In this document: in pieces, positions 325 through 16,656 of the stretch
How positions within the stretch are numbered: position 1 is the first letter of the stretch
Layout of the letters: each line of letters opens with the position of its first letter
Source: Terriglobia bacterium
GTDB lineage: Bacteria > Acidobacteriota > Terriglobia > UBA7540
Direction: 5' to 3'
Length of the DNA: 24,000 nt
NCBI GenBank assembly: GCA_036278995.1
Contig: DASUJZ010000101.1
Location: forward strand, 57,631-81,630
Position numbers and translations under genes: made by a program
Notes under the pieces: model-generated
Databases searched by the model: none
The model's input: the letters and a program-made list of their open reading frames with translations, nothing else
Told to the model about the DNA's origin: nothing

Positions 325-664
325 CAATTCCGCCTCACAAGCGGCCTGAAAGGTGAAATGAGCTCAGTGCTCTGCCACTGCTACTCGAAACGGCGGTTAT
401 TTTATCAAAAGTGGGGCGGTACGGGGAGGCATTCGATCATTATGAGCGATGGCGTCCGGAGGCATCCCGCAACGGCAAGGCATTTTTAGGCATCCAAAGA
501 TTCTCGTGGTCCATGGCCCGAGTGGGGGCTATGCAGCATGGAACTTAAGCGGCTATACTTGAAATTTTGCGTACGTTAAGTCGTTGTCAACAGAGCGTTG
601 TGGGAGGGAATCCGTCAGAAAAACGGCGCAGCCCACCAAAGATCAGGAAGGAACAGGTAAGCTT

Positions 665-3247
665 TTGCAGACTGGCGCACACCACTTTAAATTCAGGCAA
701 CCGGCTGTTTTCGCTCTTCTCATCCTCGTACTTGCCATCCTTCATAGCCCCGTTTCCTATGGGGCTTCCCCCCAGTCGACTCAGGAACTGCGAGGCCAGA
801 TTCTTGACGAAAACAACGGCCCGATTGCCGGAGTTGATTGCATTCTCCAGGGAGGCATCCTGCCCACCCAAGGGGTTACCGTGACAACTGGCTCGAGAGG
901 TGACTTCAGCATCCGGGGCTTGCTGCCGGGGCAGTACGTCCTGACCTGCACGGCGCTCGGATATCAGCCGTATGTCAAGACCGATCTGGCCGTAGCCGCG
1001 GGCCAGGCTAACTACCTTCGAGCCGCTATGCCGACGCAAAAGAAGCTTATCCAGAAGATAGAAGTTCGGGCCAAGGCGGGCAGCGCTGTAGAGCAGAGCG
1101 GGGCGCCTCCGGCCACACTCGGTTCTGAGGAATTAACAACCTTGCCGATCGCAGAGCAAAAATTCAAGGCATTCCTGCCGCTGGTTCCAGGGGTGATTCG
1201 ATCTCCGAATGGAAAGATCAATATCAAGGGATCCGTAGAAAATCAGGGCATGCTGCTGGTGGATGGCGCACAGACCGTGGATCCCATCACAGGGAGCTTC
1301 GACATCGATCTTTCGATCGACGCCATCCAATCGCTGAATGTTTACAAGGCGCCTTTTGACGCCCATTATGGCGGCTTCTCGGGCGGATTAACCACGATTG
1401 ACACCAAAGCTCCTTCCTACCAGTGGGGCTGGGATTTCAACGACGTTTTTCCTGGTTTTCGGGGCCGGAGCGGGCATCTGGTGGGCATCAACGACTGGGA
1501 ACCCAGGCTCACCTTTACCGGTCCCATCCTGAAAAATCGCCTCAACTTTTCCGAGTCATTCAACTACGACATCTTGAAGATCCCCGTCCGGGGACTTGCC
1601 TGGCCCAATAACGAGACGAAGAGGGAAGGCTATAATTCACTCACCACGTTGCAATATGTCTTCTCACCCCGGCATCTTTTGTCATTCAACCTTCATCTGT
1701 TCCCGCACAAGCAGGAATTCGCCAACATCAATTCGCTGGTCCAGCAGCCTGCCTCCGCCAATCTTTCGGAGCGCGGCTATTCCGTGCAGGGGAATGACAG
1801 CTATCAATTCGAATCAGGCAGCATCCTGAACAGCTTTTTCAAATACACGCGGTTTGACGCCAACTCGCACGGCCAGGGCTCTGAGACGATGCTGATTACA
1901 CCCAACGGCTTTGGCGGAAACTATTTCAACGCATGGGCGCGAAAGAGTAATCAGGAAGAGGGCAGCCTGACTTACCGACTCCGTGGTTGGAACTGGCTGG
2001 GCAAGCATCAGTCCGAAATCGGCGGCGATTTTATCTATCGCTCCTATACGGGAACCAGCGTGTCCCGTACGGTTCTGGTGACACGGCAGGATGGCACGGT
2101 GGCGAAACAGGTCGATTTTCTGGGTGCAGGCGGCGTTCCTTCCACCCAGTCTCCGTCTTTGTTTTCGACCAGCAATGCGGAGGGGGCGGCGTACGCGGGC
2201 GACCATTGGATGCTGACCGATCGCGCCGCCGTGGACTTCGGATTTCGCTACTACGGCCAGGCCGTGGGCGACCCCGCCACTTTCGCGCCGCGAATGGGAA
2301 TTGTGTTCACTCCAGGCAAAACGGGCCGGACGGTCATTCGGGCTGGTGTCGGAATATTCAAATCGCGCATACCACTGCTGGAGGCGGATTATGGCAGCAA
2401 CCCCGCGCGCGTAATTTCCCTGTTCGACCCCACTGGAACTATGGTGGGCCTTCCTGTGACCTACATGAGCCAGTGCGCCACAAGAATCCACACCGGGCTG
2501 CGACTCGTATCGGATTGTTCTGATCTTGATGCCACACCTTACAACCTGACATGGAGCGCGGAGCTCGATCGACAGATCACCAGCCGCATAGCTGTCCGGG
2601 CCAGCTTCCTGGGCAGCAGCACGTATAAGGATTTCGTGGTCAACCCTCTGCAAACGTCGGCGATAGAGGGTATGATGTTGCTCTCCAACCGCGGGGCAGC
2701 GCGATACCACGAATTAGAGGCCATGGTAAGTTATCGAGACAATCGGGGAAACGAGCTCAACGCTTCGTACGTCCGCAGTAGAACGATTGGCGACCTGAAC
2801 TCCATGTCACACATCTACGTCCCCTTTGAGGATCCCATCATTCAGCCAGACGTATACGCCAGCCTTGATGCCGACGTTCCGGACCGTATGATTGCATGGG
2901 GAGTTTTTCACCTCCCGCAGAAGGTCGTGTTTGCTCCAGTTATTGATTTGCACACGGGATTCCCATGGTCAAAGGTCGACGAGTTCCAGAATTATGTTGG
3001 CCCGCCCAATAGCAACAGGTTTCCGACATTCTTCTCCCTGGACTTCAAGATCTGGAAAGTGCTTCCTCTGCCGCGCTGGCTTCCCTGGGGAGGCGGTTTC
3101 AAGCTGCGGTGGGGCATTGGGATCCGCAACCTGACAGATGCTCGGGATCCGCGGGACGTTTACAACAACATCACTTCGCCCAATTTTGGCCACTTTGTCG
3201 GATTGCAGCACCGAGTGATCGAGGTCAACGTAGACACGGGAGAATAG
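665..3247 (+). CDS. Oar-like TonB-dependent outer-membrane receptor with N-terminal carboxypeptidase-regulatory-like domain
   Basis: Track ORF 584..3247 (TTG start). It has a signal-like segment FRQPAVFALLILVLAILHSPVSYGA. This is followed by a CarboxypepD_reg-like module (LRGQILDENNGPIAGVDCILQGG...GDFSIRGLLPGQYVLTCTALGYQP). Next comes a TBDR plug-like block (INIKGSVENQGMLLVDGAQTVDPITGSFDIDLSIDAIQSLNVYKAPFDAHYGGFSGGLTTIDTK), then about 600 aa of Gly/Tyr/Asn/Ser-rich barrel-like sequence. The only other in-frame start is TTG 665, preceded by GGAAGGA (646-652). It puts the signal peptide at the N-terminus, so I prefer 665; 584 remains possible. Confidence 0.8.
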   Translation: MQTGAHHFKFRQPAVFALLILVLAILHSPVSYGASPQSTQELRGQILDENNGPIAGVDCILQGGILPTQGVTVTTGSRGDFSIRGLLPGQYVLTCTALGYQPYVKTDLAVAAGQANYLRAAMPTQKKLIQKIEVRAKAGSAVEQSGAPPATLGSEELTTLPIAEQKFKAFLPLVPGVIRSPNGKINIKGSVENQGMLLVDGAQTVDPITGSFDIDLSIDAIQSLNVYKAPFDAHYGGFSGGLTTIDTKAPSYQWGWDFNDVFPGFRGRSGHLVGINDWEPRLTFTGPILKNRLNFSESFNYDILKIPVRGLAWPNNETKREGYNSLTTLQYVFSPRHLLSFNLHLFPHKQEFANINSLVQQPASANLSERGYSVQGNDSYQFESGSILNSFFKYTRFDANSHGQGSETMLITPNGFGGNYFNAWARKSNQEEGSLTYRLRGWNWLGKHQSEIGGDFIYRSYTGTSVSRTVLVTRQDGTVAKQVDFLGAGGVPSTQSPSLFSTSNAEGAAYAGDHWMLTDRAAVDFGFRYYGQAVGDPATFAPRMGIVFTPGKTGRTVIRAGVGIFKSRIPLLEADYGSNPARVISLFDPTGTMVGLPVTYMSQCATRIHTGLRLVSDCSDLDATPYNLTWSAELDRQITSRIAVRASFLGSSTYKDFVVNPLQTSAIEGMMLLSNRGAARYHELEAMVSYRDNRGNELNASYVRSRTIGDLNSMSHIYVPFEDPIIQPDVYASLDADVPDRMIAWGVFHLPQKVVFAPVIDLHTGFPWSKVDEFQNYVGPPNSNRFPTFFSLDFKIWKVLPLPRWLPWGGGFKLRWGIGIRNLTDARDPRDVYNNITSPNFGHFVGLQHRVIEVNVDTGE

Positions 3248-3351: not shown

Positions 3352-5190
3352 ATGCCTCAATACGAAGTAGAGCACGACACACTGAACTCCAACAAGCCTC
3401 GGCAAACAGCTTCTACGCCCGCGCGGAACGCCATCCCGTGGATTTTGATCCTCATCGTCTGGATGTCGGTTTATTTGCAGGGCGCATTCCGTCCTTCTCT
3501 GCTGGACGACGCCGATTCCACACACGCCGAAGCGGCGCGTGAGATGTACGAATCGAGAGATTACGTTACGCTGCACGTGAACGGCATCCGGTATCTTGAA
3601 AAGGCTCCTTTGCCCTACTGGCTGGTGGCGTTTGGATTCTCCGCTTTTGGAGTTTCGGAGTTTGCGGTGCGCCTGCCGATCATACTTTCCATCCTGCTTA
3701 TGATTGGCCTGGGGGCGCTGTGGGGATTGCGGGCGTTCGGCAGGCGCGGGGGAATCTATGCCGGGCTGTTTGTAGCAACATGTATCGGCTGCTTCCTGTT
3801 CACGCGAATCTTTATCCCTGACGTTATTCTCAGCCTGCTGATTGCCCTGTCGCTCTATTTCTTCCTTTCGGCGCTCCAGTCAAGTCGGCAGCGTGAGTGG
3901 CGATGGTATGCTGCGTACGCCCTCATCGCCCTTGCTGTGCTCACAAAGGGCCTGGTGGCAGCGGTGTTTATCGTCATTCCTGCTATCGGATACCTGGCGC
4001 TGACGGGCGAGTGGCGGCGCTGGCGGGAACTGCGACTGGGCAAAGGAATTCTCATCTTCATTTTGGTGTGTGCTCCGTGGCACATCCTGGCAGGCGTCCG
4101 CAATCACGGATTCTTCTGGTTCTATTTCGTCAACGAGCAGTTCCTGCGCTTTTTGGGAGAACGCTACCCACACGACTACAATAAACTGCCGCCCGTCCTC
4201 TACTGGGGCCTGCATCTGGTCTGGCTGTTTCCCTGGAGCCTCTATTTTCCGCTGATCTTCCGCGACCTTAAGAGGGACATCGCGGCGGCGCGAAATCCAT
4301 CGGCGCTTAACTTCGCAATCCGTACGCGGGCGCTCTGCTGGGTCTGGGCAGGCGTCGTGCTGGTTTTCTTTTCATTTTCGACCAACCAGGAATACTATAC
4401 CTTTCCCGCTTATCTTCCCCTGCTGCTGCTAATCGCCGGGAGCCTGGCGCGCGATGAAAAACAGAAACGTTCAAGCCGATGGACGGTTGTCGGCAACGGG
4501 CTTTATGCTGCCGCAGGCCTGGCCGCGGGCGCTGTGCTGGTGGCCGCGCTGTGGGCTTCAAGAAACGTGCCGCCCGCCGCCGATCTAGGCGAATTGCTGG
4601 TCCATCGCGAGGTTGCCAATAACACGCTATCGATGTCAAAATTTTTCGATCTCACCACTTCGGCTTTTGCGGCGCTGCGCCTGCCGGCGGGACTGGCCGC
4701 CGCCGCGCTACTTATCGGACCGCTCGCGGCCCTTCTTCTGCGCCTCCGCAGGAAGCACCTGGCCGCCACCTGGGCCACGGGCCTTGCCACCGCGGTTTTC
4801 CTGATTGCGGCTCAACTCGCGTTTGTCCGGTTCGGGCCGTTTCTCTCTTCGAGCCGTCTGGCCGATGCGATCCGGAGCCGTGAAAAGCCGGGGGATATGG
4901 TGATGATCTATGGCGACCAGGCTTACGGGTCATCGCTGCTGTTCTACTTAAAGAGGCCGATTGATCTGGTGAATGGGCGGACGACTTCAATGTGGTTTGG
5001 CTCGACATTTCCTGACGCGCCGCACATCTTTTTGGATGATGGTGAGCTTGCCCGCGACTGGGGCGGCGAGCATAGGATATTTCTATTCGTTCCTCCAGGG
5101 CAGCTCGACACGGTAAATCAAGTTCTGCCCCAGCCTCGATATGTTGTCGCTGAAAGCTCCGGGAAAATTGTCTACAGCAACCAGCGGTGA
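3352..5190 (+). CDS. GT-C fold membrane glycosyltransferase, ArnT/PMT-like (GT39/GT83-type, polyprenyl-phosphate-sugar dependent)
   Basis: Track ORF 3349..5190 (TTG), with ATG at 3352. It is a polytopic protein with at least 10 hydrophobic segments. The first loop, LLDDADSTHAEAAREMYESRDYVTLHVNGIRYLEKAPLPYWLVA, matches the acidic-motif / 'KxPLxYW' N-terminal signature of ArnT/PMT_2 family enzymes. There is a soluble C-terminal domain of about 120 aa (MVMIYGDQAYGSSLLFYLKRPIDLVNG...). Donor and acceptor cannot be read from the sequence. Confidence 0.75.
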   Translation: MPQYEVEHDTLNSNKPRQTASTPARNAIPWILILIVWMSVYLQGAFRPSLLDDADSTHAEAAREMYESRDYVTLHVNGIRYLEKAPLPYWLVAFGFSAFGVSEFAVRLPIILSILLMIGLGALWGLRAFGRRGGIYAGLFVATCIGCFLFTRIFIPDVILSLLIALSLYFFLSALQSSRQREWRWYAAYALIALAVLTKGLVAAVFIVIPAIGYLALTGEWRRWRELRLGKGILIFILVCAPWHILAGVRNHGFFWFYFVNEQFLRFLGERYPHDYNKLPPVLYWGLHLVWLFPWSLYFPLIFRDLKRDIAAARNPSALNFAIRTRALCWVWAGVVLVFFSFSTNQEYYTFPAYLPLLLLIAGSLARDEKQKRSSRWTVVGNGLYAAAGLAAGAVLVAALWASRNVPPAADLGELLVHREVANNTLSMSKFFDLTTSAFAALRLPAGLAAAALLIGPLAALLLRLRRKHLAATWATGLATAVFLIAAQLAFVRFGPFLSSSRLADAIRSREKPGDMVMIYGDQAYGSSLLFYLKRPIDLVNGRTTSMWFGSTFPDAPHIFLDDGELARDWGGEHRIFLFVPPGQLDTVNQVLPQPRYVVAESSGKIVYSNQR

Positions 5191-5196
5191 TCGCTG

Positions 5197-6411
5197 CTAC
5201 ACGGGACAACCTGCGTCGCTGGAATCCGTCGCGCCTGGACGGTTTTGAGGGACCATCCGCCCGCCAGCAACGAGCCGATAGCGCTCTCCGCGCCAGTCAA
5301 TCTCTGAACCCCAAAAGCTCCCGCACCACAGGATGAATCCAAGAAGGTCGCGAAGCGGATAGAGCCAGCAGTAGAGCGCGGAGTCGCGGTCGCGATTGAC
5401 GCCCCATCCAACCACCAGCGCCTGGACCACGCGGTTGACAAATGCAATAGCTAGCAAGCCCAGCCCGAGCACCCAATTGCCGGACATCCATCCGGCAGCC
5501 AGGGCGAGCACGCCAAACGGCATAGCAAACGTCAGGCCCGTTCCAATATGGCCCAGACTTCGCGAAAATCGCGAGCTCTTCATCCAGCGAAGCTGGTGGA
5601 GCATGGAAGCCCGCGCAGAGCGGTTCAGAACGATGTGGTTAATCACATGGTGCGACAGCACCACCTTGCTGCCGGCTGCATGGGTTAAGGCGCCCATGAC
5701 GAAATCGTCGGCACAGTAATCCCGCAAAACCCCAAAGCCGCCCCACCCCTCCAGCACGTCTTTCCGGATGACCATTGTGGGGCCAAGCGCGAACTTCATC
5801 CCTTCCAGTAGATTAGCCACGAGCACGCCGGAAGCTAATTCGATCGACATGCCGAGCGCTTCGAGAAGCGACCAGAAGCCCCCGGTCGAAACTCCGCGAT
5901 AGAGACAAGTAACCATGCCGACCTCCGGATCAAGCATGGGCTTTACCACTTGTGCGAGGTAATCCGGTGCGACGCGCACGTCGCTGTCGGTGATGAACAG
6001 CGTCGAATGGTTGGCCAGCGGCACCATCTTCTCCATCAGGCATACCTTGGCGTTCGGGTAGCCCGGATGGCCAGAGAGAACGGTCTGAGTTGAAACGTGC
6101 GCGTACTTCTTACTGAGGGATTCGACGATGGCGAGCGCCGGGTCTGACCGAACCCGCGCGCCAAAGATAAGTTCGTAATCCGGATAATCCTGGCGGAAAA
6201 AGCTTTCCAGACATTCTTCGAGCAAGGGCTCGGTGCCGTGCAAGGCCTTCAAAACGCTCACCGGCGGCAGGGCTGCCTTCCCCTCTGTTGGAACCGAGTA
6301 AAGCTGGGCCGAAATCCGAAAGCGCACAGAAGCGACCACCACCAGAACAAGGTAAATGCTGGCAGCGGACAGCCCGACACCGGCGATGATGAATAGAACG
6401 TGTTCAATCAT
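5197..6411 (-). CDS. hpnI: HpnI-type (GT21 / ceramide-glucosyltransferase-like) hopanoid glycosyltransferase, paralog A
   Basis: Track ORF 5197..6420 (GTG); ATG at 6411 gives MIEHVLFIIAGVGLS... It has an N-terminal TM segment. Motifs present: PPVSVLKALHGTEPLLEECLESFFRQDYPDYELIFG, the DxD-like ITDSDVRVAPDYL, CADDF, the QxxRW motif (HQLRWMKSSR), and C-terminal TM segments. This is the GT21 architecture shared by HpnI (BHT N-acetylglucosaminyltransferase). The 'LHG.EP...L.SF..QDYP' block looks closest to the canonical HpnI I remember. The symbol is tentative because a second paralog sits next door. Confidence 0.65.
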   Translation of the reverse strand: MIEHVLFIIAGVGLSAASIYLVLVVVASVRFRISAQLYSVPTEGKAALPPVSVLKALHGTEPLLEECLESFFRQDYPDYELIFGARVRSDPALAIVESLSKKYAHVSTQTVLSGHPGYPNAKVCLMEKMVPLANHSTLFITDSDVRVAPDYLAQVVKPMLDPEVGMVTCLYRGVSTGGFWSLLEALGMSIELASGVLVANLLEGMKFALGPTMVIRKDVLEGWGGFGVLRDYCADDFVMGALTHAAGSKVVLSHHVINHIVLNRSARASMLHQLRWMKSSRFSRSLGHIGTGLTFAMPFGVLALAAGWMSGNWVLGLGLLAIAFVNRVVQALVVGWGVNRDRDSALYCWLYPLRDLLGFILWCGSFWGSEIDWRGERYRLVAGGRMVPQNRPGATDSSDAGCPV

Positions 6412-6513
6412 GCGCCACACAACGACAATGCGCCTGAAATATCATAAGGCAAGGAGTGTAAATCGAGCCAAGATACCAGGAATGGTCGCGCTGTAAGGCA
6501 GGAAACGCAGCGC

Positions 6514-7674
6514 TTAGTGTTTACTGGGCGCAGGACTCAGCCGGCCCTTGCGGATATAGAACGCGTTGCCGCGCCACTCGATGCGCCGTTTGGAAAAGCT
6601 GGCGGCCAGGATGAAGAATGCGAGCGCATCCCAGACAGGCACCAGCCACCATTTCCTGCTCAGCAGTGGATCTTTCAGGCCCCACACGCCCACAGTCCAG
6701 GCGACAGCCATCCGAAGCATCAGGTACGCTGACCAAAATCCCGCTGTTGCCTCCCATGTGTGGTGCACCAGGGTGGCCGCAATGATCCACGGCAGCGCCT
6801 GGGTAAGCAGCCTGCCCAATTGGCCCCACGGCCGCGAATTGGTTACTCCAACGGCCCAGCGAAGCTGGTGTCTGATTGCGTCGAACAGCCCTTGCGATGG
6901 AGAAATGCTTGCAACTGTGTAAGGGATCAACTCGACTTCGTGACCCACATCAGCGATCCGGCGCCCCAGTTCAAAATCATCGGAAAAGCAATCCGCAATG
7001 GCCTCGAATCCGCCCAGTTCTTCGAGGCGCTCGGCGGTTACGGCGATGCTTGCGCCCAGCGCAAATTTCACGCCTTCCAACTGCCGGGCCACGACCACGC
7101 CGGCCATAAAGTCGGAAGTGAGGCCGACGGCCTCGATCTCAGAAGGCAGTTTGGGTTCCGGCTGCATGCGGTACATGCAGGTGACAGCGCCGACGTTCGG
7201 GTTCCGAAACGGGTTGACAATGGCCCGCAGATAATCGGGTTCAACCCGAATGTCGCTGTCACTCAGCACCAGGACCGGGTAGCGGGCTTCGTGCGACAGC
7301 CGGCACAATTGGCGCACCTTGCGGTTCCAGCCCTTCCACGGAGAACCAACAAAGAGGCGGATGGCCCGGCTGGGGTAATCCTCGATGAGCCTCCGGATGA
7401 CAGGGATAACGGGGTCATCGACGTCCATCACTCCGAAGAGTATTTCGTATTCGGGGTAATCGAGATTGCAGAAGCTGGCGAAGTTCTCGTAGCATTCGCG
7501 GTCCATCCCCTTGACAGGTTTCAGGATGCTGACCGGCGGGCAGAAGTCAGGATGGCGATCGACAGGACGGCGGAAATACCTCCAGGCGCTGAAGAGCGCG
7601 GCCAGATAGTAAAGCAGTGAAACGATAGCGCCAACTGAAACAACCCATTCCACCAGGTGAAAGTGCGCATGCAT
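6514..7674 (-). CDS. HpnI-like GT21-family glycosyltransferase, paralog B
   Basis: 386 aa, ATG at 7674. It has an N-terminal TM segment, then PPVSILKPVKGMDRECYENFASFCNLDYPEYEILFG, LSDSDIRVEPDYL, FSDDFELGRRIA, QLRWAVGVTNSR, and C-terminal TM segments. It aligns by eye along its whole length with paralog A, with roughly one third of residues identical. Confidence 0.7.
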   Translation of the reverse strand: MHAHFHLVEWVVSVGAIVSLLYYLAALFSAWRYFRRPVDRHPDFCPPVSILKPVKGMDRECYENFASFCNLDYPEYEILFGVMDVDDPVIPVIRRLIEDYPSRAIRLFVGSPWKGWNRKVRQLCRLSHEARYPVLVLSDSDIRVEPDYLRAIVNPFRNPNVGAVTCMYRMQPEPKLPSEIEAVGLTSDFMAGVVVARQLEGVKFALGASIAVTAERLEELGGFEAIADCFSDDFELGRRIADVGHEVELIPYTVASISPSQGLFDAIRHQLRWAVGVTNSRPWGQLGRLLTQALPWIIAATLVHHTWEATAGFWSAYLMLRMAVAWTVGVWGLKDPLLSRKWWLVPVWDALAFFILAASFSKRRIEWRGNAFYIRKGRLSPAPSKH

Positions 7675-7692
7675 TGCCTTCGTCCTATGTTT

Positions 7693-8064
7693 TCAGATGC
7701 AAACCAGAGCTACTCCGATACAGACGATGATGACGCCGGTCCACCTCTCCCGGTTTACATACTCGCCCAGTAGAAATTTAGCGCCCAGAGCGCCAACCGC
7801 GTAACTCGCAGCCGTAGCTGGAACCACCAGGCTCACGTTGGCCCACGAAAGAAGCGCCAGCAGCGAAAAAAACGCCACGGCCATCAGGCCCATTCCGATC
7901 CACAGCCACTTCACTCTGAGAGCCCGGCCGAGAAACCGCAACACGCTGAGCGGGGTGAAGCTCTTGACGTCGCCAACGGTTTTCATGGCGAGAGAAAGGG
8001 AAATATCGCCCATCTGTCCCGCCACCACAATAATCGCGATAAATAGGGCTGTGCGACCCGTCAT
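7693..8064 (-). CDS. Half-size (4-TM) EamA/DMT-superfamily membrane protein, subunit 2 of a putative heterodimer
   Basis: 123 aa with four hydrophobic segments. The C-terminal block LSWANVSLVVPATAASYAVGALGAKFLLGEYVNRERWTGVIIVCIGVALV is EamA-like. Its ATG (8064) overlaps the stop of the upstream paralog (ATGA on the minus strand, 8061-8064). Confidence 0.7.
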   Translation of the reverse strand: MTGRTALFIAIIVVAGQMGDISLSLAMKTVGDVKSFTPLSVLRFLGRALRVKWLWIGMGLMAVAFFSLLALLSWANVSLVVPATAASYAVGALGAKFLLGEYVNRERWTGVIIVCIGVALVCI

Positions 8065-8477
8065 GAATTATGACTTGTGCTGGGGTGCGTCCTGCCAACC
8101 ACGAAAACGCCTACGCAGATCAGGCCAACGCCGATCCAACGTGTGGGCGGGACATGCTCTCCCAGAAAGAAGTATCCCATCAGGGCCACCAAAACATAGC
8201 CAATCGCCGAGGCAGGCGAAACGTAGCTGAAGTCCGCCCAGGAAAGCACAAGCATGTAGCTCACCAGGAAGAGCATCAGGAGGGCAATAGCCAACCAGAT
8301 GGTCCCACTGCCAAACGCTCTGGCAAAAAAAGCGATTGCGCTCCCCAGAAACCAGTGCTGGGGTTCACCCAGCCGTTTCATACCCCGGCTCAGCAGGACA
8401 TCACCCGATGACCCAAAGGTGACCATAAACGCCAGCAGGATGAGGGTCTTGCCTCGCTGGCTTTTCAATTCAGACAT
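8061..8477 (-). CDS. Half-size (4-TM) EamA/DMT-superfamily membrane protein, subunit 1 of a putative heterodimer
   Basis: 138 aa with four hydrophobic segments. The EamA-like end is LSWADFSYVSPASAIGYVLVALMGYFFLGEHVPPTRWIGVGLICVGVFVV. It starts 20 nt after the hpnJ stop. Size, topology and pairing resemble ArnE/ArnF-type small DMT pairs. Confidence 0.7.
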   Translation of the reverse strand: MSELKSQRGKTLILLAFMVTFGSSGDVLLSRGMKRLGEPQHWFLGSAIAFFARAFGSGTIWLAIALLMLFLVSYMLVLSWADFSYVSPASAIGYVLVALMGYFFLGEHVPPTRWIGVGLICVGVFVVGRTHPSTSHNS

Positions 8478-8497
8478 GAGCTTTCATAGCCCAAAAA

Positions 8498-10006
8498 TCA
8501 AGTGTTCGATGGAGGTTCGGAGGCCAGATCGATCGCTGGCACGCTGATGGAGGTTGTTTTAAAGGGGCCATTGCGGGCAAAGTTGAGCCGCTCGCTTCGC
8601 AACCGGAGAAACTCGACGCCTTCATGGTACAGGCGCTTCCGCTCATCTTTGTCCCACAGCGCCTTGCGCACGATTCGCCACACCACGCGTGGCCTGAAGT
8701 AATACTCATCATAAAAACGGTTGACGGCGTCCATCATCTGCGCGGTGGTCAGGCCCGGATACTGGATGTGCGGCAATTGGTGGCCGCTGGTGTCGGACAT
8801 GGGAAGACTCACCAGGTGGCCGGCTTGCAACAACTGGTTGTACATCTCCGTCCCCGGGTAGCCGTGCGCGAGGGAAACCTGGATGGTTTCCGAGTCGAGT
8901 TCCCTGGCAAAATCGATGGTGCGCTGAATGGTTTCCGGGGTCTCACCCGGCAATCCGATGATGAAGTCAGCGTGGATTGCGATGCCGAGCTTCTTACAGT
9001 TTTTCGCAAACCTGCGGCCCATTTCCGCCGTTGCGCCCTTCTTGATGTTCTTCAGGATCTGGTCATCACCGGATTCGAAGCCCACAATTAAGAGGCGGGC
9101 GCCTCCGTCAGCCATGGCTTTCAGCGTCTCGTAGTCGCTGTGGACGCGGGCCGTGCAGGACCACCTGAAGCCCAACGGCTTGAACTTCTTTGAAAGTTCG
9201 ATGACACGGTCTTTGCGGATATTGAAAGTATCGTCATCGAAGAAAAACTCCTTTGCCTGCGGGAATAGCTTAAGCGCCTGCCGGATTTCCGTCGCGACGT
9301 TATCTACCGAACGTGTGCGCCACGCGTGGCCGGAAAGGGTCTGCGGCCACAGACAGAAGGTGCAAAGGGCGGGACAGCCGCGTGAAGAATAGAAAGAGAC
9401 GAAGGGATGAAGCAGAAACGGAACGTTGTAATTCTCAATGGTCAGGTTGCGCTTGTAAACCTCTGTGGCGAACGGCAGGCGGTCCAGGTCTTCGGTCTGC
9501 AGTTCCTTTCGCGGCGGGTTGTGGATGATTTTTCCATCCTTGCGATAACTCGCACCGGGAATTTCGCTGAGCGGCTTACCCTGCGCAAACTCCACTACTG
9601 CATAATCAAATTCGCCGCGCACAATAAAATCGATATCGTCGCTGGCCATTAAACTCTGATCGGGCTTCACCTGCACCGGCGGCCCCACAAAAGCTATCTG
9701 AAGGCTCGGCTTCGCCTCTTTCATCCGGCGGGCAAGCTCGAGGTCGTTCTCGAAACCGACAGCGGACGTGAAAAGGACGACGAATTCATAGTCCCTGGCG
9801 ATTTCGACGGTCTGCTGAGGAGTGACTTTGTGCGGAGGAGCATCGAGCAGGCGGCTGCCGGGCAGCATTCCCGCGGGATAGGTGAGCCAGACGGGATACC
9901 AATACGACTCAATCTCGCGTGTTGCGGGCCACCTCGAACTTGCGCCCCCATCAAACTTCTCGAAACTCGGAGGATTCAGCAACAGCGTCTTCAAAACAGA
10001 CACCAT
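8498..10006 (-). CDS. hpnJ: Hopanoid-associated B12-binding radical SAM protein HpnJ (cyclitol-ether forming enzyme family)
   Basis: 502 aa. The N-terminus LKTLLLNPPSFEKFDGGASSRWPATREIESYWYPVWLTYPAGML matches the HpnJ-family N-terminus as I remember it (..APSF.GFDGGAGSRYQA.REI.SFWYPTWLA). The radical SAM CxxxCxxC motif is present (SSRGCPALCTFCLWP), preceded by a B12-binding-like Rossmann segment. AAGGGAG lies just upstream of the ATG (revcomp of 10009-10015). It is adjacent to HpnI-type GTs and faces the shc operon. Confidence 0.75.
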   Translation of the reverse strand: MVSVLKTLLLNPPSFEKFDGGASSRWPATREIESYWYPVWLTYPAGMLPGSRLLDAPPHKVTPQQTVEIARDYEFVVLFTSAVGFENDLELARRMKEAKPSLQIAFVGPPVQVKPDQSLMASDDIDFIVRGEFDYAVVEFAQGKPLSEIPGASYRKDGKIIHNPPRKELQTEDLDRLPFATEVYKRNLTIENYNVPFLLHPFVSFYSSRGCPALCTFCLWPQTLSGHAWRTRSVDNVATEIRQALKLFPQAKEFFFDDDTFNIRKDRVIELSKKFKPLGFRWSCTARVHSDYETLKAMADGGARLLIVGFESGDDQILKNIKKGATAEMGRRFAKNCKKLGIAIHADFIIGLPGETPETIQRTIDFARELDSETIQVSLAHGYPGTEMYNQLLQAGHLVSLPMSDTSGHQLPHIQYPGLTTAQMMDAVNRFYDEYYFRPRVVWRIVRKALWDKDERKRLYHEGVEFLRLRSERLNFARNGPFKTTSISVPAIDLASEPPSNT

Positions 10007-10215: not shown

Positions 10216-11214
10216 CTAATTCGCACCCAGGCGCTTGAGAGCGTCGCGGGCCGCCTGATTGTCAGGGCTCAGCCGGAGAGCCGACCGGTATTGCTCGATC
10301 GCCTGCTCCTTCCGCCCCCACATTTCATAGATGCGCCCCAGCCAGTCATGCGCCGCCGCGTGCGGCGGAAAATCGTCGCGCCGCGGAGTTCCGGCCAGGT
10401 ACGCCTTCAGGTCCTGCTCCGCCCCTTCGAGGTCACTGCGCTTCATAACGCTGGCCACGGCGCTGTAGTAATTCACGCGCGGATCTTTGGGTACGATCGA
10501 AGCCACCGCCCGGACAGCGGCATCCACTTGCGCCGGCTTCTGATCAGCCTCGTAAAAGTCCGCAATCTGAAAGTAGGCATCAGCCTGCTGCGGTCGCGCT
10601 TTCAGGACCTTTCCATACTCCTTATCGGCCAAGTCCGGCCTGTTCAAGTCACGCCAATAGATGCCGCGCGCGAGATTGCCTTCTGTGGCGTCACGGGAAG
10701 CAATGGCTTGCACCTGGTCCTCGGCTTTATCCCTGCTCCCACCCAGTATCCACGGAGCCTGAAGATAGAACTCCATTAAATCGCGCCGGGCGGCAAGGTT
10801 GTCGGGATCCAGATGGATGGCTCTCTGATATTCCACCTTTGCCTTTCGGGCAAGCCAGAAGCTACGATCCGTATCGGCTTTCATGCCGTAAGAGCGCGCC
10901 AACCAGAAGTGCGATTCTGAGCAGTCGGGAGACAAATTAACGGCGCGTTCGCCGAAGGCCACTGCCTTGTCATAATTGCCCAGATCCAGGAAGGAACGCG
11001 CCAGCCACAGCGTGGCTTGGGCATCCTTGGGATTGTTTGCCACGTGTCGCTGGAGAACCAAGGCCGCCTCGGCATACTTCCCCGCGTCCAGGTCATTAGC
11101 AATTGCCGGGCGAGCGGGGCAGGGGCTGGTCGAGGAGTGACCTGAAGCCCATCCGCGCGCAAGCGCGCAAATACAGAGCAACGCCGCAAAAATTTTTATT
11201 TTCAAAGAATGCAT
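10216..11214 (-). CDS. Secreted/lipoprotein-like tetratricopeptide (TPR) repeat protein
   Basis: 332 aa. It has a signal peptide MHSLKIKIFAALLCICALARG. Repeated TPR-like units follow (AQATLWLARSFLDLGNYDKAVAFGERAVNLSPD; HFWLARSYG...YQRAIHLDPDN; AHDWLGRIYEMWGRKEQAIEQYRSALRLSPDN). Function unknown. Confidence 0.7.
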   Translation of the reverse strand: MHSLKIKIFAALLCICALARGWASGHSSTSPCPARPAIANDLDAGKYAEAALVLQRHVANNPKDAQATLWLARSFLDLGNYDKAVAFGERAVNLSPDCSESHFWLARSYGMKADTDRSFWLARKAKVEYQRAIHLDPDNLAARRDLMEFYLQAPWILGGSRDKAEDQVQAIASRDATEGNLARGIYWRDLNRPDLADKEYGKVLKARPQQADAYFQIADFYEADQKPAQVDAAVRAVASIVPKDPRVNYYSAVASVMKRSDLEGAEQDLKAYLAGTPRRDDFPPHAAAHDWLGRIYEMWGRKEQAIEQYRSALRLSPDNQAARDALKRLGAN

Positions 11215-11524
11215 AGTTAAAGGGTCGGCCGGTTTGGGCTAGGAAGTAACCTGAGGTAGGCCTCCGTTGTGGGAACAATCCATAATCGGGTTATTGTACC
11301 AAAAGTCTCGGCAAGATGTATAGACAGTAAATGCACGACAATCGAACCCCCTCGGAAATTTGATGCATCGTTTTATCAAACGGCTACATCAATCAATCTG
11401 GAGGTTAGATGCGCCGGGCGGCCAGGAAAGCAGTACCGAACCTCTGCTTATCTTGACGGTGCGGAAAGACCATGAGAGGATTATCTTTAGAGGGTATGTA
11501 GCAGGAAAGGATGATGTCAAAACA

Positions 11525-12493
11525 ATGAACGTGGCTCCTCACGTTGAGAACTCTGTCCGCGCTGAACCAAGAACTTTGATGCTGTTACGACCCAGGGGCT
11601 TTTGCGCGGGTGTGATCCGCGCGATTGACGTTGTCCGCATGGTTCTCGACAAACTGGGACCTCCCGTTTATGTGCGCCGGGAGATTGTTCACAACCGCTA
11701 CGTTGTGGACGAACTGGCCGGCCAGGGCGCCATATTCGTTGAAAATCTGGAAGAGGTGCCGACAGGAGCAGCGGTTATTTTCAGCGCGCATGGAGTCTCC
11801 CCTGCAGTGCGCGAAGAAGCGCGCGCCCGGCAGCTCCGCATCATTGACGCCACCTGCCCGCTGGTGACCAAGGTCCATCTGGAGGTGATCCGGTACGCCC
11901 GCGAAAAATACACCATTGTCCTTATTGGCCATCGCGACCACGATGAAATGATCGGCACGCTGGGGGAAGCCCCCGAGTCCATCCAGTTGATTTGCTCGGT
12001 GGAAGACGTGGAGGCGCTGGACCCACCCGATCCCAACCGGATTGTGTATTTGACGCAGACCACATTGAGTCTGGATGATACCGCGGAAATCGTCGAGCGG
12101 CTCAAATACCGATTTCCTGCCATTATCGGGCCGCCGGGACAGGATATATGCTACGCCACACAGAACCGGCAGATGGCCGTCAAGGCCATTGCCCCCAAGG
12201 CTGATGGAATCCTCGTGGTGGGAGCCCAGAATAGTTCCAATTCGAACCGGCTGGTGGAAGTTGCCCGGCGGGGAGGGACGATGGCCTACTTGATCGGCAA
12301 CGCTGACGACATCCTTCCGGAATGGGTGAGCGGCCAGCGACGTATCGGTGTCACCGCAGGCGCGTCCACGCCGGAAGTGCTGGTTCGGCAGGTCGTCGAC
12401 CGGCTGAAGGAATGGGGCTTTACGCGAGTAGAGGAAGTAGAGTGGATCGAAGAAGACGTCCGGTTTGCCCTGCCTGCGGAATTGAAGGTCTAA
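11525..12493 (+). CDS. ispH: 4-hydroxy-3-methylbut-2-enyl diphosphate reductase (IspH/LytB)
   Basis: The three conserved Cys contexts are present: PRGFCAGVIRAI, IDATCPLVTKVH and DICYATQNRQ. The SSNSNRL and VTAGASTPE blocks are also present. The track ORF starts at 11360, but its first 55 codons fall in a lower-GC, non-homologous stretch. ATG 11525 (MNVAPH...) or ATG 11579 (MLLRPRGFCAGV, which matches the E. coli-type N-terminus) are the realistic starts. Confidence 0.9.
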   Translation: MNVAPHVENSVRAEPRTLMLLRPRGFCAGVIRAIDVVRMVLDKLGPPVYVRREIVHNRYVVDELAGQGAIFVENLEEVPTGAAVIFSAHGVSPAVREEARARQLRIIDATCPLVTKVHLEVIRYAREKYTIVLIGHRDHDEMIGTLGEAPESIQLICSVEDVEALDPPDPNRIVYLTQTTLSLDDTAEIVERLKYRFPAIIGPPGQDICYATQNRQMAVKAIAPKADGILVVGAQNSSNSNRLVEVARRGGTMAYLIGNADDILPEWVSGQRRIGVTAGASTPEVLVRQVVDRLKEWGFTRVEEVEWIEEDVRFALPAELKV

Positions 12494-12515
12494 AGGCGCA
12501 TAGTGAGTACGCGGG

Positions 12516-14558
12516 GTGTTCATGACACAGGAAGCGGGAGTTGAGCTCGAACCGTTCAAAAACGGCCGTGCGGTTGGAGCAGTGGATGCTGGCCTCGATC
12601 AGCGTGTACGACGGGCGGTTGACAGCGCGACCGAGCATCTGCTTTCCTTGCAATCGCCGGAGGGCTACTGGGTCGGCGAACTACAGGCTGACTCCACCCT
12701 GGAATCCGACTATATATTTTTTCTCTACGTGGCCGGCCAGTTTGCCCCGGGGCGCATCGCGAAGCTATCGAACTACATCCGCCGCAGACAGCTCCCGGAT
12801 GGTGGATGGAATATCTATCAGGGCGGCCCTTCCGAGCTCAATGCCACTGTCAAAGCTTACGTCGCGCTCAAGCTGGCCGGTAACTCGCCTGAGGAGCCTC
12901 ACATGGTGGCTGCCCGCCAGAGGATCCATGACCTCGGTGGGCTTGAAGAGACCAACTCGTACACGCGTTTTTACCTGGCGCTGGGTGGCGCCCTCGAATG
13001 GAAGCACGTGCCGGCAATTCCCCCGGAGTTAATGCTTTCGCCGTGCTGGTTCTTCTTCAACGTTTACTCCCTGTCATCGTGGACGCGGGCGATCGTGGTG
13101 CCGCTCACGATCCTTTATGCTCTGCGCCCGCCGTGGGGTTTGCCGGAGCACGCGCGCGTTGATGAGCTTTTTCGCAATCCCTCGAGACATATTCCGGTCT
13201 TTGACTGGGACCGAAAGATCATCACCTGGCGAAATCTGTTTCTGGCCATTGACCGTCTGTTCAAACTGCACGAATCCCTCCCCTGGAGACCTTTCCGCAA
13301 GATGGCGCTTGCGCGGGCGCAGAACTGGCTGCTGGAACACCTGGAGCGGAGCGAGGGGCTGGGGGCTATTTACCCGGCCATGCTCAACTCGCTCTTTGCC
13401 TTGCTGGCTATGGGGTATCCGGCTGACGATCCCCTAACGACACGTGAACTCGAACATCTGCGCGGCTTCGAGGTTGAAAAGGGCGACACGATCTCTCTTC
13501 AACCATGCCTCTCACCGGTCTGGGACACCGCAATTGCAATGTACTCGCTGGAGGAGGCGGGGCTGCCTTCAGATCATCCGGCCCTGGTCAATGCCGCGCG
13601 GTGGCTGCTCGATCGACAAATTGTCGGTCCCGGCGACTGGCAAGTTAAGAACCAGGACGCTCCTCCGGGAGGCTGGGCGTTTGAATTTCGGAATGATTTT
13701 TATCCCGACGTAGACGACGCCTCCTTTGTGATGATGGCGCTGCAACGGGTTGCCTACCCGGACAAGCTCCGGCTTGAGCATGCACTCCGGCGCGGATGCC
13801 GGTGGCTGGTCAGCATGCAGAACCGCGACGGCGGCTGGGGCGCCTTCGACCGCGACAACGATTGCGCAGTGCTTACGCGTGTGCCCTTTGCTGATCACAA
13901 TGCCATGATTGATCCCTCAACTGCGGATGTCACCGCGCGGGTGCTGGAGTGCATCGCGCACCTAGGGTGGCCGGCTTCCCACCCCGTGGTGCAGCGCGCG
14001 CTCGACTATCTGCGGAAGGAGCAGACGGCAGAAGGCGCCTGGTACGGACGCTGGGGTGTGAACTACGTCTATGGAACCAGCGGTGTCCTGCGGATGCTGG
14101 AAGCGTTCGACCTAGGCAAGACCCCGGAAGCCCAGAAGGGGTCTGACTGGCTCTGTTCCGTTCAGAATCGAGGGGGTGGTTTTGGAGAATCATGCGCCTC
14201 CTACGACGATCCTTCCCTGAAGGGAAGAGGGCCCTGCACACCCTCGCAAACCGCATGGGGCTTGATCGGGTTGCTGGCAACCCGCAGCGTCGATGATCCG
14301 GCCGTCATCAATGCCGTGCAGTATCTGCTGGATGAACAAACCGAGGAGGGATTCTGGAAAGAAAGCGAGTTTACGGGGACCGGCTTCCCGAGTGTCTTCT
14401 ATCTTCGTTACACCCTCTACCGCAATACCTTCCCACTTTATGCGTTGGCACACTATCAGAACCTCCGCCTCAAAAGGGAGCAGACGGACTCCATTAGCGT
14501 TTCGCCAGCCGAATTCGAGCGGCATAATGGAAATGGAAAGAAAAACGGGAGGAATTGA
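12516..14558 (+). CDS. shc: Squalene-hopene cyclase
   Basis: 680 aa. The catalytic DxDD motif is in FYPDVDDASFVMMAL (DVDD = 13707-13718). There are multiple QW-type repeats (RRQLPDGGWNIYQGG; SMQNRDGGWGAFD; KEQTAEGAWYGRWG; SVQNRGGGFGES; DEQTEEGFWKE). GTG at 12516; ATG at 12522 is an alternative start. Confidence 0.95.
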   Translation: MFMTQEAGVELEPFKNGRAVGAVDAGLDQRVRRAVDSATEHLLSLQSPEGYWVGELQADSTLESDYIFFLYVAGQFAPGRIAKLSNYIRRRQLPDGGWNIYQGGPSELNATVKAYVALKLAGNSPEEPHMVAARQRIHDLGGLEETNSYTRFYLALGGALEWKHVPAIPPELMLSPCWFFFNVYSLSSWTRAIVVPLTILYALRPPWGLPEHARVDELFRNPSRHIPVFDWDRKIITWRNLFLAIDRLFKLHESLPWRPFRKMALARAQNWLLEHLERSEGLGAIYPAMLNSLFALLAMGYPADDPLTTRELEHLRGFEVEKGDTISLQPCLSPVWDTAIAMYSLEEAGLPSDHPALVNAARWLLDRQIVGPGDWQVKNQDAPPGGWAFEFRNDFYPDVDDASFVMMALQRVAYPDKLRLEHALRRGCRWLVSMQNRDGGWGAFDRDNDCAVLTRVPFADHNAMIDPSTADVTARVLECIAHLGWPASHPVVQRALDYLRKEQTAEGAWYGRWGVNYVYGTSGVLRMLEAFDLGKTPEAQKGSDWLCSVQNRGGGFGESCASYDDPSLKGRGPCTPSQTAWGLIGLLATRSVDDPAVINAVQYLLDEQTEEGFWKESEFTGTGFPSVFYLRYTLYRNTFPLYALAHYQNLRLKREQTDSISVSPAEFERHNGNGKKNGRN

Positions 14559-15607
14559 TGAGATTTCCGCTCAGTTTGACGGCAAATCTGAGTACCTACA
14601 TAGCTGGAAAGAGACTTCATCGCGTTGATAAATTTCCTTTGGTCATGATGCTGGAACCGCTGCATGCCTGCAATCTAACCTGCACGGGATGTGGACGCAT
14701 TCGAGAATACAAAGATACCATCCGCGACAAGCTGACCGTCGAGCAGTGCCTCAACGCAGTGGATGAGTGCGGCGCACCTGTCGTTTCCATTTGCGGCGGC
14801 GAGCCGATGATCTATCCTGACCTGCCGCGCCTGGTGAGTGAGATCCTGGACCGCAAAAAAAACATCTACCTGTGCACCAACGGGATGTTCATTCGAAAGC
14901 GTCTTCAGGATTACAAGCCCACCTCACGGATGTTCTTCAACATCCATCTGGACGGCATGGAGGCTACTCACGACCTCTGCGTGGAACGCAAAGGGGTCTT
15001 CCGCGAGGCCGTCGCGGCCATCAAGTTCGCCAAAGACCGCGGCTTCCAGGTGTGTACCAACACAACTATTTACAAGCAGACTGACCTGAACGAGATCGCA
15101 GAGCTGTTCGAATTCCTGCGGGGCCTCGGTGTGGACGGGCACATGCTTTCACCGGCCTATTCCTATCTTGCTGTCCAGACCAAAGAAATCTTCATGTCTC
15201 GCCAGGAAATTCATGCCAAGTTTCGCGAGGCCAGCCGGCTGTTGGAAAAATATTGCGTGATGACTTCGCCAATCTATCTGGAATATCTACGCGGCGAGCG
15301 CGAACTGGAATGTACGGCCTGGGGCAATCCTACTTACAATCCGCGCGGCTGGAAGGGGCCGTGCTACCTGATCACTGACGGGCATTACGCCACCTTCAAG
15401 GAGTTTATGGAATCCACGCCCTGGGAAAACTACGGCCCAGGGAAGGATCCTCGATGCGAACACTGTATGGTCCACGTGGGCTTTGAACCTTCCGCGGTGC
15501 TGGGCGCCAACCGCAACTTCCCCGATACCTGGAAACTCCTCAGATGGCAGCTTACAAAACCGAAGGGCGGACACAACAGCAACAGTGCCCTTTACGCGAA
15601 TGGATGA
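14558..15607 (+). CDS. hpnH: Adenosylhopane synthase, radical SAM protein HpnH
   Basis: The N-terminus MRFPLSLTANLSTYIAGKRL...FPLVMMLEPLHACNLTCTGCGRIREY carries CxxxCxxC, and the C-terminal Cys-rich region is CYLITDGHY...DPRCEHCMVHVGFEP. ATG 14558 overlaps the shc stop (TGATG) and is preceded by GGGAGGA (14547-14553). The track start TTG 14555 is one codon longer. Confidence 0.9.
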   Translation: MRFPLSLTANLSTYIAGKRLHRVDKFPLVMMLEPLHACNLTCTGCGRIREYKDTIRDKLTVEQCLNAVDECGAPVVSICGGEPMIYPDLPRLVSEILDRKKNIYLCTNGMFIRKRLQDYKPTSRMFFNIHLDGMEATHDLCVERKGVFREAVAAIKFAKDRGFQVCTNTTIYKQTDLNEIAELFEFLRGLGVDGHMLSPAYSYLAVQTKEIFMSRQEIHAKFREASRLLEKYCVMTSPIYLEYLRGERELECTAWGNPTYNPRGWKGPCYLITDGHYATFKEFMESTPWENYGPGKDPRCEHCMVHVGFEPSAVLGANRNFPDTWKLLRWQLTKPKGGHNSNSALYANG

Positions 15608-16656
15608 CCGGGATGACTTCTCTTGTAACAGGGGCAAGCGGATTTGTGGGCAGCCACGTAGCGCGGATGCTGGCTGATCGTGGCGATCAGGTCCGCGTTC
15701 TGGTGCGGCCGCAAAGCAGCCTTTTCGCGCTTGAAGGAGTACCGGTAGAAACGGTCTTCGGCGACCTGCGAGATGCCAGCTCGCTGGGCGCTGCTGTCGA
15801 AGGCGTCGATCGAGTCTTTCATGTTGCAGCCGATTATCGGCTGGGCGCTACCCGTCCTCAGGAAATCTACGATTCCAACGTAACCGGCACGCGAAATCTG
15901 CTGGAAACAGCAGGCAGGGAGAAGGTTCAGCGAATTATCGTTACGAGCAGCATCGCCACCATTGCGGTGGACCGCGGCTTGACCTTGCCGAACGAGGCAA
16001 CTGAGGCGCGCGTCGAGGAGATGATTGGTCATTACAAGCGCTCAAAATTCCTCGCCGAGAAGGAAGCGCTGAAGGCGGCACGCGAAGGCATGCCGGTGGT
16101 GATTGTCAACCCCACCACTCCGGTCGGTCCGGGTGACTGGAAGCCGACGCCGACTGGACGCATTATCGTGGACTTTCTAAACGGCAGGATTCCGGCATAC
16201 GTGGAAACCGGTCTCAACTGGGTACCGGTTGAAGATGTTGCGGTTGGGCACTGGCTGGCCGCGGAGCGCGGGCGCGTCGGCGAGCGGTACATCCTCGGCG
16301 GCCGCAACATGCTGCTGAAAGAAGTTCTCGACATCCTGGCGCGAATCAGCGGACGCACCAGCCCTCGCCTTCGCCTGCCGCATTCTGTCGCCATGGCAGC
16401 AGGTTACGCTGACCACATCTTTTCACGCATCGTTAACCGTCCGCCACGAATCCCGCTGGAGGGGGTTCGGATGGCCCGGCACAAGATGTTCGTGGACTGC
16501 TCAAAAGCTTCCGCCGAGCTTGGTTTCAAGGCTGGCCCGGTGGAGGCCGCACTGGAAAGGGCAGTCGCTTGGTACCTACAGCGCGGTTACGCCAACAATA
16601 ACCATCCTGCGACAAGCTTCGAACGGGCGGCATTAGCAAGCCGTGAACGGAAATGA
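15604..16656 (+). CDS. hpnA: Hopanoid-associated NAD(P)-dependent sugar epimerase/reductase (extended SDR) HpnA
   Basis: Rossmann motif LVTGASGFVGSHVARML, followed by GDLRD..SL, VFHVAADYRL and YKRSKFLAE (YxxxK). ATG 15604 overlaps the hpnH stop (ATGA, 15604-15607); ATG 15613 is an alternative. The track ORF from 15544 would overlap hpnH by 64 nt and adds no homologous sequence. Confidence 0.8.
   Translation: MTGMTSLVTGASGFVGSHVARMLADRGDQVRVLVRPQSSLFALEGVPVETVFGDLRDASSLGAAVEGVDRVFHVAADYRLGATRPQEIYDSNVTGTRNLLETAGREKVQRIIVTSSIATIAVDRGLTLPNEATEARVEEMIGHYKRSKFLAEKEALKAAREGMPVVIVNPTTPVGPGDWKPTPTGRIIVDFLNGRIPAYVETGLNWVPVEDVAVGHWLAAERGRVGERYILGGRNMLLKEVLDILARISGRTSPRLRLPHSVAMAAGYADHIFSRIVNRPPRIPLEGVRMARHKMFVDCSKASAELGFKAGPVEAALERAVAWYLQRGYANNNHPATSFERAALASRERK

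Follow-up and report, generated by a model that had tools for sequence, protein, structure and literature searches.

The described systems closest to the locus analysed here are the Arn pathway of Enterobacteria and Burkholderia, in which an ArnC-type GT2 enzyme, ArnA, ArnB and the deformylase ArnD, the half-size transporter pair ArnE/F and the GT-C glycosyltransferase ArnT cooperate, and the hopanoid cyclitol ether pathway of Burkholderia, Zymomonas and Alphaproteobacteria, which comprises HpnI, HpnK and HpnJ. Related designs are the Bordetella Lgm system, in which the GT2 LgmA, the deacetylase LgmC and the ArnT-like GT-C LgmB place glucosamine onto lipid A, and mycobacterial PimE, a GT-C enzyme that extends a glycolipid acceptor in the periplasm. 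The locus lies in a stretch of 24,000 nucleotides from a soil-dwelling Terriglobia bacterium (assembly GCA_036278995.1, contig DASUJZ010000101.1, positions 57,631 to 81,630; the window), where the minus-strand genes hpnJ, DMT-a, DMT-b, GT21-B and GT21-A, in this order and directly beside ispH-shc-hpnH-hpnA-hpnG, run towards a plus-strand gene for an ArnT-like GT-C. Comparison with related loci revealed at least six gene orders in which GT21, DMT pair, hpnJ and ArnT-like GT-C genes co-occur in Terriglobia, and their association is much better supported than the gene order of one window could show. We propose, with a probability of about 0.42, that these genes form a Terriglobia-specific cassette whose products work in two compartments to build up the polar head group of extended hopanoids.

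The block had been singled out in an original prediction, which read it as an Arn-like pathway attached to a hopanoid locus. An open reading frame (ORF) listing and profile searches recovered all six genes at 3352-10006 with the coordinates and strands first described, converging on GT-C as claimed:

3352-5190, plus strand: ArnT-like GT-C glycosyltransferase of 612 aa (PMT_2, 74 bits; ArnT model NF009784, 103.2 bits)
5197-6420, minus strand: GT21-A, an HpnI paralogue (Glyco_transf_21, 143 bits; HpnI model TIGR03472, 306.9 bits, cut-off 310)
6514-7674, minus strand: GT21-B, the HpnI-type glycosyltransferase of the hpnJ operon (TIGR03472, 332.8 bits, cut-off 310)
7693-8064, minus strand: DMT-b, a half-size DMT membrane protein of 123 aa (no NCBIfam match; 37% identity to DMT-a)
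8061-8477, minus strand: DMT-a, a half-size DMT membrane protein of 138 aa (EamA, 31 bits; ArnE model, 28.5 bits, cut-off 92)
8498-10006, minus strand: hpnJ, coding for a B12-binding radical SAM protein of hopanoid side-chain modification (TIGR03471, 718.1 bits, cut-off 577.6)

The six gene products compared with known enzymes

GT-C aligned with Cupriavidus ArnT (5EZM) at 136.9 bits, residues 27-402 and 441-609 covering the membrane and the periplasmic C-terminal domains. D52-D53, E83-K84, D157, R266 and Y348 of GT-C align with D55, E84-K85, D158, R270 and Y345 of 5EZM, which we take to be the first-loop acidic sites and the undecaprenyl-phosphate-binding Lys, Arg and Tyr sites. DD52-53, E83-K84, K199, R266 and Y348 were invariant across the orthologues and in GT-C', a 38%-identical paralogue found in the loci of relatives, and D157 was replaced by Glu in one locus (L157; loci are numbered with an L). 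As judged from this alignment, GT-C is predicted to keep the catalytic and undecaprenyl-phosphate-binding residues of ArnT. It differs from ArnT in that the zinc-site histidines (5EZM H265 and H267) are Asn and Gln ('FVNEQF' vs 'FIHEHW') and in that its score on NF009784 stays far below the equivalog cut-off (103.2 vs 567 bits). The step proposed below for GT-C, extension of a flipped glycolipid at its head group with sugar from a polyprenyl-phosphate donor, would resemble that of PimE, although PimE belongs to another GT-C family and a triterpenoid glycoside acceptor would be without precedent.

The two GT21 proteins are 33% identical to each other. Their alignments with the structure of ceramide glucosyltransferase spanned the entire proteins and scored 100-113 bits (GT21-A, 100.7 bits). 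Neither matched ArnC, GtrB or DPMS among the solved structures; GT21-A gave an additional weak 28-bit match to 6yv7. A DxD motif, a catalytic-type Asp and a (Q/R)xxRW signature, common to these proteins and ceramide glucosyltransferase, were present in 94-95 of the 95 collected GT21 sequences, both window copies included, and together with the structural match they argue for a lipid hydroxyl as the acceptor. GT21-A and GT21-B are therefore distinguished here from ArnC-type polyprenyl-phosphate transferases and predicted to be HpnI/GT21-type lipid-hydroxyl glycosyltransferases. What sets them apart from ceramide glucosyltransferase is an HpnI-model score of around 300 bits or higher (288-342 bits for the GT21-A orthologues, on either side of the cut-off) and a hopanoid or GT-C context with no sphingolipid genes near. 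In GT21 trees, all GT-C-linked copies fell into a GT21-A clade distinct from that of GT21-B, which grouped with copies from hpnJ-DMT-DMT-GT21 operons; GT21-A is the conserved partner of GT-C.

DMT-a and DMT-b each have 3-4 hydrophobic segments (about four helices) and their genes overlap by 4 bp, an architecture by which the pair appears ArnE/F-like. DMT-a scored well under the ArnE equivalog cut-off, and its family is small, with 318 matches, nearly all from Terriglobia.

The likeness of the window to the Arn pathway thus consists of an ArnT-homologous GT-C and an overlapping pair of half-size transporters, to which some relatives add an ArnC-like GT2 and a deacetylase within the cassette. 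The differences are that profile searches of the window genes detected neither an ArnC-like GT2 nor any of the 4-amino-4-deoxyarabinose (Ara4N) genes arnA/B/C/D, that the GT2-fold enzymes are of the HpnI/GT21 type, and that the genes form part of a hopanoid locus, with an acceptor that is probably not lipid A. For the window, the strict Arn analogy, with a GT2 that makes the polyprenyl-phosphate donor, fails because both GT2-fold enzymes belong to the HpnI/ceramide-glucosyltransferase type. With the cyclitol ether pathway the window shares HpnJ and an HpnI-type glycosyltransferase beside shc and hpnH, but a DMT pair separates its hpnJ from hpnI, another HpnI paralogue is encoded, a GT-C is attached, and neither HpnK/YdjC nor a PIG-L deacetylase was found among its genes in the profile searches.

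Gene neighbourhoods of the DMT pair and of GT-C across Terriglobia

A survey anchored on the DMT pair covered 83 DMT-containing loci (3 exact look-ups and 80 metagenome loci), of which 30 were well flanked, with at least 4 kb on either side of the pair. Among these 30 loci, GT21 was present in 28 and hpnJ in 19, followed by a MacB-type permease and/or outer-membrane factor (17), GT-C or GT-C' (12), a UDP-sulfoquinovose-synthase-like (SqdB-like) gene (11), an AsnB-like amidotransferase (10), an ArnC-like GT2 (3) and YdjC (2). All DMT-anchored loci carrying GT-C carried GT21 too, and GT21 is the hub, that is, the common neighbour of the DMT pair and of GT-C or GT-C'. The following architectures were found, MFP and OEP standing for membrane fusion protein and outer membrane factor:

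1: [MFP-TPR-MacB-OEP]-hpnJ-DMTa-DMTb-GT21
2: AsnB-GT-C'-SqdB-like convergent with GT21, which is divergent from DMTa-DMTb; variant DMTa-DMTb-AsnB-GT-C'-SqdB-like
3: hpnJ-DMTa-DMTb-GT21A-AsnB-GT-C', all on one strand (L116)
4: MFP-TPR-MacB-OEP-hpnJ-DMTa-DMTb-GT21-YdjC-GT2 convergent with GT21A-GT-C'-AsnB (L119, L134)
5: DMTa-DMTb-GT21A convergent with GT-C (a 62% orthologue)-GT2-YdjC (L157, L167)
6: hpnJ-DMT-DMT-GT21B-GT21A (L114)

The arrangement in the window goes beyond chance, because many related loci bring the same families together, in several orders. The GT2 in the cassettes of relatives is an ArnC/GtrB homologue (ArnC model, 197 bits; ArnC and GtrB structures, 163-182 bits, with 182 bits to 9hwj), and the accompanying YdjC protein is HpnK-like (212 bits vs a cut-off of 232.6). 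The ArnC-like GT2 that the original prediction had suggested looking for thus exists, together with a deacetylase, in the cassettes of some relatives and is missing from the window. Sets of GT2, deacetylase and ArnT-like GT-C in L157, L167 and L127 are reminiscent of Lgm; they differ from it in their YdjC/HpnK-like deacetylase and in being coupled to HpnI-like GT21, the DMT pair and hpnJ, and the window itself has no such set.

The second survey was anchored on GT-C, homologues of which are numerous in Terriglobia (55-90% identity), and comprised 86 loci (80 from an alignment-based genome scan, 5 exact look-ups and the window) that were compared by tblastn and ORF clustering. GT21-A was located directly downstream of GT-C and convergent with it in 27 of the 86 loci, the flanks of which represent at least six unrelated contexts, and within 10 kb without being adjacent in 14 more. 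In ten loci of one clade, an NDP-heptose operon with the order GT21A, SDR, HddA-like kinase, nucleotidyltransferase, GmhA/GmhB fusion and transaldolase was inserted between the two genes, and in four loci GT21-A was 8-10 kb away. Since GT21-A heads this operon, its sugar donor in that clade may be of the heptose type. In the GT-C tree, all deep branches showed GT21-A adjacency, and in L015 the pair was co-directional. GT-C is accordingly linked in its evolution to GT21 genes and not to the TonB-type receptor gene upstream of it: receptor adjacency was seen in 6 of the 86 loci, the window included, and in L090, all of the window's clade, and a tie between GT-C and the receptor was ruled out on this ground. 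The block as a whole was conserved in close relatives only, its complete window-like form being confined to five loci of the window's clade (the window, L001, L007, L010 and L090), with its parts occurring together elsewhere in the orders listed above. Overall, the prediction of an Arn-like pathway at a hopanoid locus is partly supported: the association of GT21, DMT pair, hpnJ and GT-C stood, the strict Arn analogy did not, and the DMT pair is unlikely to serve an Arn-type donor.

Some further observations were made in these surveys. The NDP-heptose operon, whose SDR is an epimerase/dehydratase and whose nucleotidyltransferase is of the sugar-1-phosphate kind, was found in Sulfotelmatobacter-type loci, about 0.1-7 kb downstream of GT-C (L062, L064, L065, L068, L070, L075, L078, L079, L081, L084). 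In L003, L004, L022, L031, L042 and L051, the gene two places upstream of GT-C codes for a PIG-L/BshB1-like N-acetylglucosaminyl deacetylase whose N-terminus bears a hydrophobic segment; as evidence on the GT-C/GT21-A pair it was set aside, since it occurred in too few lineages (one clade). An apparent bifunctional GT21 and GT-C fusion (P0042, L089 298-620) was rejected, as it carried only a frameshifted, 43-residue N-terminal GT21 remnant joined in frame to the start of a GT-C orthologue at a contig end; this is probably a decayed co-directional GT21-GT-C arrangement or an assembly artefact. A separate cassette without hpnJ combines the DMT pair with a third GT21 subclade, GT-C', the AsnB-like amidotransferase and the UDP-sulfoquinovose-synthase-like gene (497 bits vs a cut-off of 575). 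It was present in L097, L099, L104, L108, L122, L125, L127, L133, L154 and L158, and its product may be a sulfonated or amidated sugar lipid. Moreover, in a subset of genomes, dTDP-rhamnose-type proteins (RmlA, RmlB, RmlC and RmlD), a 267-aa GT2 and a membrane protein of about 490 aa (weak DUF6798) were encoded beside the hpnJ operon, upstream of MacB-OEP-hpnJ (L087, L095, L103, L114, L135, L139, L140).

A possible route to glycosylated hopanoids and its competitors

In the most economical scheme, GT21 makes a hopanoid-glycoside acceptor, the DMT pair flips it and GT-C extends it, which would amount to two-compartment lipid glycosylation of the Arn/Lgm type, here wired to hopanoid side-chain enzymes. 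By family membership, the shc, hpnH and hpnG-like genes are predicted to make the C35 hopanoid side chain, GT21-B to be an HpnI-type lipid glycosyltransferase, and hpnJ to code for a radical SAM enzyme whose proteobacterial role is the conversion of the sugar head group to a cyclitol ether. On the cytoplasmic face, GT21-B and GT21-A would each put a nucleotide-activated sugar on a hydroxyl of the hopanoid polyol, and the sugar used by GT21-A would differ between lineages, as suggested by the heptose-pathway operon that this gene heads in some genomes. HpnJ would remodel the GT21-B product, and since the HpnK deacetylase is absent, its substrate may differ from the canonical one. The glycosylated hopanoid would then be flipped into the periplasmic leaflet by a DMT-a/DMT-b heterodimer, in the way that ArnE/F moves its lipid-linked sugar; the cargo is likely a GT21/HpnJ product and not an Arn-type donor, because the pair accompanies hpnJ and GT21 in loci with no GT-C nearby. 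In the periplasmic leaflet, the ArnT-like GT-C would add a further sugar from a polyprenyl-phosphate-sugar donor, the synthase of which would be encoded outside the window and may in some relatives be the ArnC-like GT2 paired with the YdjC deacetylase. Export of the product to the outer membrane may, in relatives, fall to a MacB-type tripartite pump encoded beside hpnJ. That the outcome is a set of hopanoid-anchored glycoconjugates, primed by an HpnI-type enzyme, moved by an ArnE/F-like flippase and extended at the head group by an ArnT-family GT-C in the periplasmic leaflet, is put forward tentatively.

The link of the GT21 hub to hopanoids is drawn from the report that HpnI and HpnJ domains occur only in genomes with SHC and HpnH (bioRxiv 10.1101/2025.07.29.667474). 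Alphaproteobacterial genomes carry either all three of hpnI, hpnK and hpnJ, in a cluster, or none of them (PMC12583986), whereas Acidobacteria of subdivisions 1 and 3 have hpnI and hpnJ and lack hpnK, the consequence of which was left open (PMC5462960). The same study obtained about 10 times more hopanols by direct Rohmer degradation of whole cells than by degradation of the solvent extract, from which it follows that most acidobacterial hopanepolyols are hard to extract (PMC5462960); this fits large or covalently bound polar head groups. A microsynteny study of shc neighbourhoods proposed HpnL, HpnM, HpnS and HpnT and did not mention the DMT pair or GT-C. In the full-text literature, we found no paper linking hopanoids with EamA/ArnE-type or GT39/ArnT-type genes, and nothing relevant on Acidobacteria together with lipid A or heptose.

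Several points weigh against a hopanoid acceptor and a single pathway. Characterised ArnT-family enzymes modify lipid A or the lipopolysaccharide (LPS) core, and we know of no GT-C that uses a hopanoid as acceptor. The acceptor of GT21-A could be another lipid, because Agrobacterium GT21 enzymes take diacylglycerol. The donor synthase is not encoded in the window, and we infer the acceptor, the donor and the sugars from gene context and homology throughout. The GT-C and GT21-A genes, whose stop codons lie 6 bp apart, are convergent and so not co-transcribed. In 45 of the 86 GT-C loci, all from one large Acidobacteriaceae clade, GT-C had housekeeping neighbours and no GT21 within 10 kb (8 of these 45 loci have less than 5 kb of sequence downstream of GT-C), and GT-C was absent within 10 kb in 16 of the 19 hpnJ-type DMT loci. 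Finally, L091, whose DMT-a is 84% identical to that of the window, reads hpnJ-DMT-DMT-GT21B-GT21A followed by the TonB-type receptor, with GT-C cleanly gone near 12063-13421, and L092, another close relative of the window, has neither GT21-A nor GT-C, which shows the module to be dispensable or mobile.

Among the competing explanations, a true Arn logic survives best and is in our view unlikely: the HpnI-like paralogues GT21-A and, in relatives, GT21-Ib would load a sugar onto polyprenyl phosphate, the DMT pair would flip the product, and GT-C would transfer the sugar to lipid A, the LPS core or a hopanoid. GT21 neighbours both the DMT pair and GT-C and is the sole cytoplasmic glycosyltransferase of most cassettes. 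Among these, AsnB-GT-C'-SqdB-like/GT21/DMT-DMT, the GT21A-heptose operon with GT-C and the plain GT-C/GT21A pairs would each amount formally to a complete Arn-type pathway of GT-C, a flippase-like pair and a nucleotide-sugar enzyme. This explanation is at odds with the full-length homology of both window GT21 proteins to HpnI and ceramide glucosyltransferase, with no detectable structural match to ArnC, GtrB or DPMS, and with their Asp and (Q/R)xxRW signature, which is that of hydroxyl-glycosylating enzymes. Moreover, several cassettes hold GT21 along with a genuine ArnC-like GT2, which would be redundant if GT21 played the ArnC role.

It is likewise improbable that GT-C is an ordinary lipid A or LPS-core enzyme of the ArnT/Lgm type that has hopanoid neighbours through co-regulated remodelling or inherited gene order and not through a shared substrate. 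Homology to ArnT and the conserved donor-binding residues would be expected of such an enzyme, as would the operon with an ArnC-like GT2 and a deacetylase in L157 and L167, which is organised like Arn and Bordetella Lgm, the housekeeping surroundings of GT-C in the large Acidobacteriaceae clade and the loss of GT-C from L091. Left unexplained is why an HpnI-like GT21 is the immediate neighbour of GT-C or GT-C' in at least six arrangements, among them co-directional, overlapping genes and a row starting with hpnJ; in addition, the ArnT equivalog score of GT-C is low (103 vs 567) and no Ara4N genes lie near. Even with lipid A as the target of GT-C, the locus would show that hopanoids and LPS are remodelled in a coordinated way.

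A lineage-specific accident that placed the functionally unconnected modules hpnJ-DMT-DMT-hpnI and GT-C/GT21-A side by side is very unlikely: the full block is indeed confined to the window's clade and each module occurs alone in many other genomes, but the modules are joined differently in other lineages (L114, L115, L116, L119, L134, L157, L167), and a gap of 93 bp, in which no terminator was recognised, separates GT21-B from the co-directional GT21-A downstream of it in the window. A view of the block as two unrelated modules, suggested by the GT-C survey, was dropped once the DMT-anchored metagenome loci showed the parts recombined.

If elaboration of extended hopanoids by this cassette is correct, GT-C would be the first GT-C enzyme with a triterpenoid lipid acceptor and the DMT pair the first dedicated hopanoid flippase; to our knowledge, neither a hopanoid flippase nor a periplasmic modifying enzyme has been described so far. 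The resistance of most acidobacterial hopanepolyols to extraction with solvents would be accounted for as well. Hopanoids rank among the main lipids of membranes and leave plentiful molecular fossils; little is known of their polar head-group chemistry beyond the Proteobacteria. In soil, few bacterial groups are as abundant as the Acidobacteria, and the cassette provides candidate genes for their hopanoid chemistry without hpnK.

Neighbouring genes in the window

The six-gene block is flanked by the following genes:

584-3247, plus strand: TonB-dependent-receptor-like outer membrane protein, upstream of GT-C (CarboxypepD_reg, Plug and OMP barrel domains)
10216-11214, minus strand: TPR protein gene beyond hpnJ (TPR families; a homologue lies inside the MFP-TPR-MacB-OEP-hpnJ rows of relatives)
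11360-17408, plus strand: hopanoid core genes ispH, shc, hpnH, hpnA and hpnG-like (IspH 455, SHC 767, HpnH 435, HpnA 446 bits)
16653-17408, plus strand: the hpnG-like gene (HpnG, 102 bits, under the cut-off of 187)
17405-18511 and 18511-19569, plus strand: two tandem Zn-dependent alcohol dehydrogenases (similar to scyllo-inosose and threonine dehydrogenases)

The TPR gene is a remnant of the exporter set that precedes hpnJ in relatives (L086, L088, L093, L119, L120, L131, L134, L145, L147, L159, L164). Besides the TPR protein, the only member that the window keeps, this set comprises a MacB/FtsX-type permease, a membrane fusion protein and an outer membrane factor, and it resembles a tripartite exporter that could take a hopanoid glycolipid to the outer membrane. 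Promoter and terminator scans of the window gave hits at chance level only and were uninformative. A 486-aa minus-strand ORF at 22079-23539 had no family match and is probably spurious, because in L171, another contig of this organism, a rhamnosidase is called there on the plus strand. The pair of Zn-dependent alcohol dehydrogenase genes is translationally coupled to the hpnG-like gene; the same gene follows hpnG in L091 and L092 and corresponds to 'ug1', a gene of no assigned role, of Sinninghe Damste 2017. The encoded enzymes are plausible candidates for the reduction of ribosylhopane to bacteriohopanetetrol.

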